A stretch of 64,000 bases of DNA from an uncultured Verrucomicrobiae bacterium (GTDB taxonomy: Bacteria > Verrucomicrobiota > Verrucomicrobiia > Chthoniobacterales > Xiphinematobacteraceae). Of the stretch, positions 44,949 through 57,612 are shown piece by piece. Position 1 is the stretch's first letter. Each line of letters starts with the position of its first letter. The notes beneath the pieces are model-generated. The model saw nothing but the letters and a program-made list of their open reading frames with translations. It was not told where the DNA came from and did no database searches. The position numbers and the translations under genes are program-made. The stretch covers positions 480,001 through 544,000 of the forward strand of contig CAVPNI010000001.1 in the NCBI GenBank assembly GCA_963706715.1. Direction: 5' to 3'.

Positions 44949-45093
44949 GAACAGCTTGGTATGTTCCAATGACATTTTTTTGTTTACAGGCCATAGAACA
45001 CAACCACCAAAACTCATCAGGATTACAAGACCACCAAGGCTTTTAACCGCTAATTTGAAATGCTTTTTGCATTCCTGAAATCAGGAACTTCAT
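44949..45093 (-). pseudogene. 5' fragment of an immunity-like lipoprotein gene, truncated by IS66
   Basis: MKFLISGMQK..SFGGCVLWPVNKKNVIGTYQAV, then the IS66 end; near-identical to the start of the 53425 gene. Confidence 0.8.
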
Positions 45094-45260
45094 TGGTTTT
45101 TTGGCAATAGGCTCGGATTTTTTGGCTCGGGCCATTTAAATATTTGCCTGACATTACTCATCGGCCCACTGCTTCGGCGAATATTTGGTACCACATGCAA
45201 GAAGAATGAGTTCGCTCCAGCCGTGTTCTTGATCGTGAAGGTCGCGGTACCGTCGTGGAT
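45090..45260 (-). pseudogene. Orphan RHS toxin C-terminal tip fragment
   Basis: DGTATFTIKNTAGANSFFLHVVPNIRRSSGPMSNVRQIFKW, matching the C-terminus of 53422..57612. Confidence 0.8.
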
Positions 45261-56400: not shown

Positions 56401-57612
56401 CGCCCACCAGCTTTGTGTTGTCCAGTTATTTCTGGCAGCGGTCTCTCTGAGCACAACACCGTTGAGAATGGTGGCAACAGTCTCTTTCTCACGCTCCCAC
56501 CGTTGGTCAAATTCTCTGATTTCCTTTGCTTCGGCTTCTTTTATCACCCGCACTCGTTCCGCATTTGCCAGTTGATTGAGCCCGGCCTGTAACGATTGCG
56601 CTTTTGGAGTCCCTATCTGCGTCAATTTGTTCTGCAATTCCTCCTGCCGAGTCTGCCTCCATTGATTTTCCGCGTTGACTTGATCGGCTGTCGCCGAAAA
56701 ACTTATGGCCCAATCTCTCACGCGAAACTCATGCTGTAGATTATCCCATTGTGTTTTAACGAAGCTCTTCCATGCCTCTTCTTCCTGTTGCCAGTTTTGT
56801 TCCCACTGCGCCCAACCAGGACTTGCTGTTAACCTCATCTGAGCAGCTATTTCTCTTACTCGAGGTCCATTGAGAAGATTTATCCTTTCCTTTTCGCTTA
56901 CCCACCTTTGCTCCCATTCTCGGACTTGTTCGGTATGATGTTGTTTCAGATTTGCAGCCCATGCTTCTATCTTGGACTGATTGAACCGAGCCTGTTCTTG
57001 CTGGCGAGCTTGTTCTTGCTGGCGAGCTTGTTCCTGCTGACGGGCTTGTTCTTGCTGGCGAGCTTGTTCCTGCTGGTGAGCTTGTTCCTGCTGGTGAGCT
57101 TGTTCCTGCTGGCGAGGTTGTTGGTGATCTATCTTGACGCTACCCAGTCCTCTCGATGTCATAAGTGACATCGCAGAAGGCAATGACGTCACAGAAATCT
57201 GGGTCACCGGTTTGTGAATAGGTATTCTTGGTACATAAACGGTAAATTGCGCATTTCTCTTAATACGCCCACGCGTTTCTATCTCAAAAGGATCGTAGCT
57301 CTCTGCCGGAGATATCTTCACGTCAGAAAAAGAAGAAAATAACCGATCTAAAATATCACCTTCTTCTTTGAAGCTTTGAAATAGCTGATCAGTCATTCCC
57401 TCTTTCAGTTTAAACGGTACCTGACCAAAGCTTTTGTGTATTCTCCGGAGTATTAGAGAACTCCTTTCCATTAAGCTTTGATCGGATTTTAACGCAATGT
57501 TTTCTGCAATAGCATCGCTCTGTTTTGTAGACTGATCAGAGATTTGCGCCTGTTGTGTTTTGAATGCCCTCTCTAAGGAGGGCACGCTATGTGTAAGAGA
57601 AATCTGGCTCAT
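53422..57612 (-). CDS. RHS/YD-repeat protein with coiled-coil W/Q/E-rich N-terminus and putative C-terminal toxin
   Basis: YD-type repeats (YDTKGN, YNEQGLL, YDPIGQL, FDRRGNV, YDGLNRL, FDPLGNP); followed by paralogous lipoprotein genes. Confidence 0.85.
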   Translation of the reverse strand: MSQISLTHSVPSLERAFKTQQAQISDQSTKQSDAIAENIALKSDQSLMERSSLILRRIHKSFGQVPFKLKEGMTDQLFQSFKEEGDILDRLFSSFSDVKISPAESYDPFEIETRGRIKRNAQFTVYVPRIPIHKPVTQISVTSLPSAMSLMTSRGLGSVKIDHQQPRQQEQAHQQEQAHQQEQARQQEQARQQEQARQQEQARQQEQARFNQSKIEAWAANLKQHHTEQVREWEQRWVSEKERINLLNGPRVREIAAQMRLTASPGWAQWEQNWQQEEEAWKSFVKTQWDNLQHEFRVRDWAISFSATADQVNAENQWRQTRQEELQNKLTQIGTPKAQSLQAGLNQLANAERVRVIKEAEAKEIREFDQRWEREKETVATILNGVVLRETAARNNWTTQSWWAEFEGDWQEQEQEWKNLVKIANKNQQTEFHRRTEELPIQFWTDEQQINTEKQWRENQKKELEQTLMQTGNQRSQALLNRLNFEQAWERNKDTFSLVHPVRFREHITQLGLTTSPKWPQWERDWQKEERAWKNLLRSERLNMMAEFQKRDRELTFPTVDAVNAEKQWRQTREQELNHKLLPIYTQKQQSLNAGLDRLTATEKLRIQNQEDGKIVQYFAEAAENVVTDYLETLAKEETEKIARIQTIQTDGKIIQFFADATTDVVTDYLEAPTTDQRGLVNKLKYDTKGNVIEKTTIGDITGDGVSNTATTKFAYNDNNLLTSVIDPMGNEIAVFYEDSSHPRLPTRIERRFEGQVTFDIHNTYSAAGLLQRQAIASGTPDEAIVEYTYNEQGLLTSQRRITGNSDPDVVTQFEYNTRGELTKQTDDSGITIYIPDLANKQIRVERRDKAGNLIASEITHYNQSGVPKRIDQFNLDASIGTQPAEHNPYAQIFYKHDPFGNLLEVSRPNGYLIKMTYDPIGQLLSSSYRDDADSSKVYTEKFTYESGGEIATYTNPQGGETKYFYTTDGKLHRRQNPDGTVQQWRYRLDGRLVKEIQPDGSYWEIAYNDRERTISRTLKNSSHTTLSQERFVFDRRGNVISYTDGKNNTVTRQYDGLNRLKTEINPSDTPQAAQEQTHISYGRNTLMIINNLGEKQIFTKDAWGRINSVVNENANNQKVAETTYAYSPNNITETNGTVSTTTTFDPLGNPVLVNRFDSDEGFAKQVLDIGVAHVSTIGIPVSMYLGFAGQAAEWWGLTNVASKLNTASGSILEFVADRWTAGNQGPMGRVVDKQIYATTSLLRPAIGMHNQQLLAGWLTGNSPNDIVYDPNSIQVRDMQTSPNVGRARIKGHAQGFPEGSLFGHDTIPAYKETILNPFTANWKSTAMQVGGYSGATIKNNHDGTVTFTIKNTAGANSFFLHAVPNIRRSSGPMSNVRQIFKWPEPINPSLLPKNQ
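56986..57111 (-). repeat. 7 x 18-bp coding tandem repeat (QQEQA[H/R])
   Basis: Visible in both DNA and translation. Confidence 0.9.

Follow-up and report, generated by a model that had tools for sequence, protein, structure and literature searches.

A probable, partly decayed polymorphic-toxin array in a verrucomicrobial genome, with a candidate envelope-acting toxin domain and putative lipocalin-like lipoprotein immunity proteins

Introduction

The E-type DNase colicins and their Im proteins combine one toxin fold in many alleles with matched inhibitors, and the residues that determine specificity are found at the interface of the two partners. Colicin M acts in the periplasm, and its immunity protein is membrane-anchored and periplasmic. 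The envelope effectors of type VI secretion systems (T6SS), among them amidases, glycosidases, lipases and pore-forming proteins, have periplasmic or lipoprotein immunity proteins. Here, we describe an array of toxin-like and lipoprotein genes in a stretch of 64,000 nucleotides (nt), hereafter called the window, from an uncultured Verrucomicrobiae bacterium (assembly GCA_963706715.1, contig CAVPNI010000001.1, positions 480,001-544,000, that is, C1:480001-544000). The array occupies window positions 44949-57612, with all of its genes on the minus strand. It consists of a gene for a 1396-amino-acid (aa) YD/RHS-repeat protein, which we call the main protein, two orphan cassettes made up of a core part and a C-terminal module (CT), a deleted CT remnant and six paralogous lipoprotein genes.

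The array resembles the Rhs/YD polymorphic toxin systems with orphan cassettes, such as the enterobacterial Rhs loci, as these are presented in the part of the literature considered here (PMC3482391). In both cases, a variable C-terminal toxin and, next to it, a protective gene come after YD repeats, homology to the core persists in orphan cassettes farther downstream, and the genes are translationally coupled. Within the portion of the catalogue of Zhang et al. 2012 (PMC3482391) that was consulted, a single lipoprotein immunity family is listed, Imm65, which goes with Tox-JAB-1; the pairing with lipoproteins is therefore unusual for Rhs-type systems as covered there. We read the locus as a partly decayed polymorphic-toxin array that would encode an undescribed, envelope-acting antibacterial toxin domain together with lipocalin-like lipoproteins conferring immunity. 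On the basis of the sequences and the structural models, the probability of this reading is put at roughly 0.68.

The putative C-terminal toxin domain

The main protein (53422-57612, minus strand) ends in a module of 246 aa, designated P0001, of which the last ~145 aa are the conserved, putatively toxic part. In CT1, the copy carried by the main protein, a helical linker (module residues 1-94; 53881-54162, minus strand), assigned from helices at residues 10-110 in an AF2 model and from alignment to relatives, is followed by a toxin domain of 152 aa (53425-53880, minus strand), the part that is conserved in 262 representative relatives. The AF2 model of the entire module has a predicted local distance difference test score (pLDDT) of 87 and a predicted template modelling score (pTM) of 0.79; its first half is helical and its second half alpha/beta. 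The linker begins with DSDEGF, a degenerate version of the core-end motif that reads DPxGR in relatives. With a Kyte-Doolittle maximum of 1.41 in a 19-residue window, the helical linker is not a clear transmembrane segment.

No match was found for the last 246 aa in Pfam (up to E<=10) or in NCBIfam, and no sequence match to a PDB chain was obtained for the CT, whether a single sequence or a profile was used as the query. In the literature on lipocalin/Rhs immunity and on verrucomicrobial RHS proteins, no prior description of the toxin family was encountered, and a description under another name is possible. An exhaustive HMMER search of 1.84 billion representatives yields 262 relatives with a cut-off of E<=1e-3, of which 145 also pass E<=1e-10. 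Among the 150 relatives listed, the domain ends at most 25 residues from the C-terminus in 140. RHS_repeat or RHS is found in more than half of the longer relatives scanned (24/44), some of which also contain DUF6531, SpvB and TcdB_midN, or teneurin-like parts, and RHS_repeat is present in 11/11 upstream proteins scanned at loci from other phyla. In the consensus of 64 sequences, representing canonical relatives, a DPxGL motif directly precedes the domain. The extreme C-terminal position, combined with RHS carriers, is the signature of a polymorphic-toxin tip. Two relatives, P0004 (592 aa) and P0006 (552 aa), have a coiled-coil N-terminal part that is joined straight to the 246-aa CT module and lack YD repeats; the module thus occurs on more than one carrier.

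Four residues are invariant in the CT family (V180, N202, S208 and Q229), none of them acidic, and the near-invariant ones include Y119, S132, R139, Q179, G181, G182, H212, W233 and E235. The genome, which measures 3.04 Mb in four contigs (C1 to C4) and is rated 100% complete, has six or more sites with matches to the two families, 20 to the CT and 22 to the lipoprotein, so that the array is far beyond chance. Among 14 in-genome copies, the toxin domains are 46-99% identical, the one of orphan 3 being 63% identical to CT1. The three CTs and the tip of the array align along their entire length, and the most variable stretch is central (toxin-domain residues ~37-75). This full-length alignment bears out an initial annotation of the locus, according to which all CTs belong to a single family with a divergent centre.

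The lipoproteins and the predicted complex

The main gene is followed by immA1 (52970-53467, minus strand), the likely start of which is an internal Met at 53425, in an ATGA overlap with the stop codon of the main gene; the lipobox Cys is residue 45 of the long open reading frame (ORF). Next comes immB1 (52524-52973, minus strand; 149 aa), whose product is closest to the lipoproteins downstream of sister CTs on C2 and C1. By their lipobox, these small downstream proteins are putative bacterial lipoproteins. The 19 in-genome copies have a signal peptide, the lipobox and a conserved N-terminal half in common and differ in their C-terminal half, just as had been described initially for the six paralogues of the array; all of these copies have Gly at position -1, as read from the sequences. 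Without exception, 19 aligned sequences from six phyla have the lipobox Cys, and because of this invariance an action of the toxin in the cell envelope seems likely. The earlier claim of a periplasm- or membrane-acting toxin gains in strength from the invariant Cys and keeps its conditional form.

A Pfam scan of the six lipoprotein ORFs at E<=0.01 gave PF16369 only and no match to an Imm65 model; the matches to the lipocalin-like domain are weak and mostly below threshold. The AF2 model of immB1 (pLDDT 89.7) is a small beta-barrel, for which the best Foldseek match is the lipocalin-like structure 4qrl (E 2.5e-3, probability 1.00). As modelled, the lipoprotein is a lipocalin-like small beta-barrel with eight strands. 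A profile search finds 93 related database clusters, none of which has a precomputed Pfam domain; the named relatives among them are all called 'hypothetical protein', except for one labelled MalE.

The pairing of the two families extends beyond this genome. Among 23 loci from other phyla, collected with a 13-sequence CT alignment, 14 have a lipoprotein homologue immediately behind the CT, as recognized with a hidden Markov model (HMM) built from the 19 in-genome copies (E 8e-71 to 5e-3 for 15 ORFs). These 14 loci belong to Verrucomicrobia, Acidobacteriota, Nitrospira, Desulfobulbus and Binatia. In two further loci (L029 and L041) the same lipoprotein motifs are recognized by eye only, and two others (L043 and L044) are uninformative. 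Planctomycetes and other phyla have the toxin tip too, with no lipoprotein recognized in those of their loci that were examined. In two Pirellulales loci (L038 and L039), a multi-pass hydrophobic protein with a common C-terminal motif follows the toxin instead of a lipoprotein, and this protein may represent an alternative membrane immunity family.

The complex predicted for the CT1 toxin domain and mature immA1 scores 0.79, versus 0.01 for the best of three controls. This mark was reached by 116 of 157 solved complexes and by 2 of 215 mismatched pairs, these counts being rough, as obtained with our own alignments. The runs agree in at least 96% of the contacts, and the pLDDT of the partners is at least 88. 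The predicted interface comprises toxin-domain residues 43-63, 87-93 and 105-109 and lipoprotein residues 107-161. It thus brings together the hypervariable central loop of the toxin and the variable C-terminal half of the lipoprotein, and it includes contacts to two conserved sites, the near-invariant GG of the QVGG loop and N202, which is invariant. Across the 14 in-genome pairs, interface positions are more variable than the rest in both partners: mean entropies are 1.45 versus 0.82 bits in the toxin (one-sided Mann-Whitney p 0.0017) and 1.64 versus 0.88 bits in the lipoprotein (p 9e-5). Furthermore, the distance matrices of CTs and lipoproteins are correlated (Mantel r 0.63; 0 of 5000 permutations as high). 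Co-folding of CT and immunity pairs had been proposed at the outset, and for CT1/immA1 the prediction stands up against its controls. The proposal of an uncharacterised toxin-immunity family is likewise supported, by the lack of a CT match in Pfam, NCBIfam and the PDB, the C-terminal position, the synteny at other loci and the predicted complex.

In the mechanism that we propose, the YD-repeat protein and every orphan cassette would end in an antibacterial toxin domain of ~145 aa, and this toxin most likely acts in the cell envelope, in the periplasm or at a membrane face. Each lipoprotein would most likely neutralise its cognate toxin by binding a conserved patch (the QVGG loop and N202) together with the hypervariable loop next to it, and surplus lipoprotein genes would give protection from sister alleles. 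The orphan core-CT/immunity cassettes could be recombined into the place of the expressed tip, since they retain homology to the core over 160-330 aa. We infer that the domain is toxic, where in the cell it acts, that the alleles are specific and that the orphans are used in recombination.

Organization and decay of the array

The genes are arranged in the order main, immA1, immB1, orphan 2, immA2, immB2, orphan 3, imm3, CT-tip remnant, imm fragment. ORFs, reading frames and alignments agree with the order, strand and coordinates given in the initial annotation. The 4-nt overlaps that it reported can be read directly as ATGA or GTGA at six junctions: main/immA1, immA1/immB1, immB1/orphan 2, immA2-remnant/immB2, orphan 3/imm3 and tip/imm fragment. 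For CT2/immA2 the same arrangement is deduced from the reading frames, and immB2 and orphan 3 are separated by a gap of ~10 nt. The layout of the cassettes thus proved to be real, but the annotation had missed two ISL3 insertion sequences (IS), one IS66 element and a 215-bp miniature inverted-repeat transposable element (MITE), which break orphan 2 and two of the lipoprotein genes. Among the six lipoprotein genes, one has been split by an IS and another survives as a frameshifted fragment; the other four are intact.

Orphan 2 carries two of the insertions. The 5' part of its core (~52097-52527, minus strand) begins with a GTG start that overlaps the immB1 stop. It is split by an ISL3-family element on the plus strand (~50602-52102; transposase ORF 50758-52089, Pfam DDE_Tnp_ISL3 E 3.7e-62), the ends of which were set from ~35 other genomic copies. 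Beyond it follow the 3' part of the core and the first part of CT2 (~49810-50601, minus strand). A MITE of ~215 bp with inverted ends, to which no strand is assigned, lies inside CT2 (~49595-49809) and has ~25 other genomic copies of 85-99.5% identity. The CT reading resumes past the MITE, in the last part of CT2 with its stop codon (49336-49594, minus strand). The 5' part of immA2 (~48971-49381, minus strand) is cut by an element of a second ISL3 type, whose ends were set from ~15 other genomic copies (~47587-48970, minus strand; transposase 47600-48838, Pfam E 4.8e-74), and a 3' remnant of the gene is left at 47484-47586.

The genes that follow, also on the minus strand, comprise the intact immB2 (47043-47483; 146 aa), orphan 3 (45764-47032; 422 aa), which is an intact core-CT cassette whose N-terminus is an RHS-core-end-like remnant joined to a YD repeat, and the intact imm3 (45309-45767; 152 aa), which is linked to orphan 3 by an ATGA overlap. 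Next is a remnant cassette (45090-45300, minus strand), in which an RHS-core-end remnant is fused to the last ~57 aa of a CT. Because this fusion is out of frame, the CT tip is regarded as an internally deleted cassette. A frameshifted lipoprotein-gene fragment (~44949-45093, minus strand) comes last. An IS66-family element recognized with Pfam (42947-44948, minus strand; TnpB 44522-44890, transposase 42947-44302) has its end at 44948, where it truncates both the fragment and the array as a whole. Through these IS elements and the MITE, part of the array has decayed.

Several other large genes are found in the same window. Five tandem autotransporter genes (5211-18503, plus strand) encode proteins of 787-917 aa, each with a PF03797 beta-domain and two of them with PATR repeats; the last two appear to be near-identical, with equal lengths and equal Pfam PATR scores. 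Two ORFs of 2718 and 2032 aa (22139-30295 and 31211-37309, plus strand) have TcdA/TcdB pore-forming and Peptidase_C80 domains in a Pfam scan, the only analysis applied to them; the first one also has a TcdA/TcdB glycosyltransferase domain. A resolvase, a RhuM/Fic protein and two PIN-domain genes are located on the minus strand (18711-20240, 1129-1515 and 41067-41477). In view of these genes and of the IS copies, the region looks like a mobile or accessory island.

The carrier protein and its genomic context

Three regions can be distinguished in the main protein: an N-terminal coiled-coil region of ~700 aa, YD repeats at residues ~720-1150, and the 246-aa C-terminal module. The N-terminus is rich in Ser, Thr and Gln, and three Trp-rich coiled-coil repeats are visible in the translation of the N-terminal region. 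An 18-nt tandem repeat of 7.6 copies (56987-57122, minus strand) encodes a QQEQA(H/R) run in the same region. For residues 1-700, a word-indexed search among proteins of 767-2443 aa found no relatives, and the ESM Atlas gave no usable match. The YD/RHS repeats are recognized by PF05593 (E 5.7e-24) and TIGR01643 (E 2.1e-21), in the main protein, and the orphans match too. At E<=0.1, the NCBIfam matches of the main protein are limited to YD_repeat_2x, a partial RHS_core and a chance match to ccoS; the match to NF041261 spans model positions 425-670 of 1261.

In close relatives, the motif NDPxNFCDPxGR is followed by a helical stretch and then by the toxin domain. As judged from its sequence, the main protein lacks two defining features of canonical Rhs proteins, a core end of the DPxGL type and a full-size shell. 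Two other such features are present, namely YD/RHS repeats and a variable C-terminal toxin with an adjacent immunity gene and orphan cassettes. The label 'RHS' used in the initial annotation is thus appropriate for the repeats but not for the core end and the shell.

The genome contains four full-length main-type paralogues (1396-1631 aa) and a fifth that is cut short at 847 aa, all with open frames. Three of them are 88-95% identical to the main protein in the N-terminal region and one is 42% identical. No conserved gene lies upstream of the main paralogues; what they share there is a leader of ~110 nt and a common repeat of ~90 bp. This repeat, which lies just upstream of the main gene at window ~57979-58066, occurs dozens of times on contig C1 alone, with identities of 80-100%, and it is probably a second MITE family.

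Canonical carriers occur elsewhere in the genome. Open frames for giant canonical RHS proteins, 2075-3268 aa long and with signal peptides at the N-terminus, are located at C3:764270-773455, C4:243311-253114, C1:821892-830237 and C4:545577-551801. Two complete giant RHS proteins have other C-terminal domains after a DPxGR motif, and one canonical core end on C4 bears the same CT family as the array. In addition, an injectisome-type cluster of a type III secretion system (T3SS) is present at C2:62000-76000, with YscK, SctL-like, SctN (T3SS_ATPase_C), SctQ/R/T/U/V and HrpJ components.

Opposing evidence and alternative explanations

A number of observations weigh against the reading of the locus as a polymorphic-toxin array, and most of them concern the carrier and its route out of the cell. 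No core-end autoprotease motif of the type DPxG[LWFIM] was found, a close paralogue being examined, and a DSDEGF sequence in the main protein aligns to DPDGRL of a relative. The repeat region of ~430 aa aligns only to the first ~455 residues of a relative, which in that comparison goes on for ~730 more residues before its core end and has a visible shell of at least 1180 residues. No signal peptide is evident in the translation of the main protein, and searches of the genome detected no PAAR, no TssC/VipB and no sheath; one isolated Phage_GPD-like match lies on another contig. Because the core end, the full shell, the signal peptide and a T6SS are missing, the expressed copy may not be processed or delivered as a canonical Rhs toxin. 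In addition, 5 of the 23 loci from other phyla encode a different hydrophobic protein directly behind the toxin, IS copies abound in the genome, and the array is itself already broken in part.

Further opposing evidence comes from the pattern of variation. Co-duplication of linked genes alone could give the Mantel correlation. In six Nei-Gojobori comparisons of four close alleles, the ratio of nonsynonymous to synonymous substitution rates (dN/dS) stays below 1 throughout (6/6), with values of 0.19-0.47 for the central segment and 0.19-0.48 for the interface codons, and dS is raised in the central segment as well. Outside the variable segment, dN/dS is 0.12-0.25, which indicates purifying selection. 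Positive selection on the alleles was considered and is not supported, as dN/dS stayed below 1 and dS was raised too. The pattern is better matched by mosaic specificity segments of old origin, set between homogenised flanks, than by proven positive selection. The allelic variation claimed initially is supported by the higher variability of the interface in both partners.

With respect to the activity of the domain, the toxin could be a very distant colicin M-like enzyme that cleaves lipid II at the periplasmic face and is blocked by a periplasm-facing immunity protein, an arrangement that would fit the logic of colicin M. We regard this as unlikely. Foldseek, which had been suggested initially and placed the lipoprotein among lipocalin-like structures, returned for the 246-aa model top PDB rows that are all of the colicin M family: pectocin M2 (4n58, E 0.052), pectocin M1, syringacin M and colicin M, with PaeM lower. 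The ESM Atlas, an independent method, also leads to this family: of its clusters with a Pfam name, the nearest one is 'Colicin M domain-containing' (score 0.92, 181 of 256 features in common). However, the Foldseek rows are all weak (E 0.05-2.3, template modelling score ~0.2, root mean square deviation 9-15 A), no colicin M chain is among the 50 rows listed after re-alignment of the hits (lowest Z 4.6), and the Atlas tool itself warns that such named rows often arise by chance. Both the wide structural search and the re-alignment are dominated by the N-terminal helical hairpin of the 246-aa model, so they have little bearing on the toxin half. At the sequence level, Pfam Colicin_M (PF14859) matches neither the CT nor any in-genome CT copy at E<=10. 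Profile comparison of the CTs by hhalign with a 16-sequence colicin M alignment (query from plasmid NC_009837; 28 homologues collected, 16 aligned) gives a probability of 0.1-0.2%. The catalytic Asp/Tyr/Asp...His-Arg motif, as D.YD.{5}HR, is found in 0 of 151 CT-family proteins, although this pattern is narrow and matches only 11 of the 28 colicin M homologues. In the colicin M alignment, the columns of D226, D229 and R236 do not vary, whereas no acidic residue is invariant in the CT family. Two other activities were dropped: a papain-like nucleophile Cys, which is found in 4 of 13 relatives, is not conserved and is absent in the CTs of the array, and an R-S-E ADP-ribosyltransferase, suggested by R, STA and Q..E residues, with which neither the motifs nor the periplasm-facing immunity protein agree. 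More speculatively, and with a probability that is low as well, the ~145-aa domain might hit a lipid-linked cell-wall precursor or another envelope target by means of an enzyme fold that is either new or very remotely related to that of colicin M. The 1396-aa carrier, which combines a coiled-coil head with half a YD shell and lacks an autoprotease, would then be a new, T6SS-independent presentation of a polymorphic toxin in a verrucomicrobial genome with a T3SS and no T6SS.

The remaining alternatives concern the function of the locus as a whole. The main protein could be an effector against a eukaryotic host or prey, exported by the T3SS or another route, with lipoproteins that do not serve to protect from neighbours. 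The injectisome-type cluster, the lack of a signal peptide, the Ser/Thr/Gln-rich N-terminus and the failure to find T6SS genes are in line with this, as are the five autotransporters, the two large TcdA/TcdB-like proteins and the Fic protein in the same window. Eukaryote-directed toxins, however, usually need no linked, allele-matched protective proteins, the CT-lipoprotein pair is conserved in free-living phyla behind canonical RHS core ends, and the predicted complex with its variable interface favours a neutralising partner; a eukaryotic target is therefore judged quite improbable. The breakage of orphan 2, immA2 and the last cassette by IS, MITE or deletion would also suit a relic, in which genes derived from canonical giant RHS toxins decay in a genome riddled with IS and no longer act as a weapon. 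Compared with a relative, the main protein is without the core end and most of the shell, and canonical giant proteins exist elsewhere in the genome, with the same CT family at one C4 core end. Against such a relic, four full-length paralogues and the 847-aa fifth one keep open frames, CT1, orphan 3 and four lipoprotein genes are intact in the window, and the low dN/dS outside the variable segment points to purifying selection, which leaves little probability for complete loss of function. Finally, lipoprotein genes behind bacteriocin genes can be lysis or release genes, and binding as predicted would also suit a carrier, so that the lipoproteins could be helpers in toxin release or export. 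Bacteriocin release lipoproteins are very short peptides, whereas the lipoproteins of the array are beta-barrels of ~120 aa. They vary allele by allele at the predicted interface, which covers conserved toxin residues, and extra copies without toxins (immB1 and immB2) accumulate, as orphan immunity genes do. A role in release is thus very improbable, and the polymorphic-toxin array with lipoprotein immunity is the preferred explanation.

Significance and comparison with known systems

The locus brings to light two linked protein families, both unnamed in Pfam and NCBIfam, with 262 clusters for the toxin tip and 93 for the lipoprotein. Both are found in Verrucomicrobia, Acidobacteriota, Nitrospira and Desulfobulbus; like Planctomycetes and the other phyla that have the toxin tip, these are groups in which bacterial warfare is little studied. 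The predicted interface offers a concrete and testable map of allele specificity. An envelope target, if true, would extend the short list of periplasm-acting Rhs-type toxins, and with a truncated carrier and no T6SS in the genome, one has to ask how such toxins are delivered.

Compared with the Rhs/YD systems, the array differs in its main protein, which has no DPxGL core end, a partial shell and an N-terminal part of ~700 aa without relatives, and in the lack of T6SS genes in the genome. Its cassettes are alleles of one toxin family and not unrelated toxins. Its immunity proteins are lipoproteins, for which Imm65 is the only counterpart elsewhere in the part of the catalogue consulted (PMC3482391). 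The complex of the BtpeA C-terminal domain with BtpiA from the Bacteroides fragilis T6SS (PDB 9jdi) is to be kept apart as well, as its match score is in the range rated common. With the envelope effectors of T6SS, the array has in common that a periplasmic immunity protein implies a toxin acting there; it differs in that the genome has no T6SS and the toxin domain matches none of those effector families in Pfam. The colicin M family (PF14859) is similar in that the toxin is neutralised by a periplasm-facing protein, and the fold and language-model searches give weak leads in its direction. No sequence or profile similarity and no catalytic motif link it to the CT family, and the delivery context is another one. 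The nuclease colicins and their Im proteins differ from the array in compartment, fold and carrier, and the specificity of the array is a predicted one. What the two seem to share is the principle of an allele series in which the specificity residues are concentrated at the interface between toxin and inhibitor.

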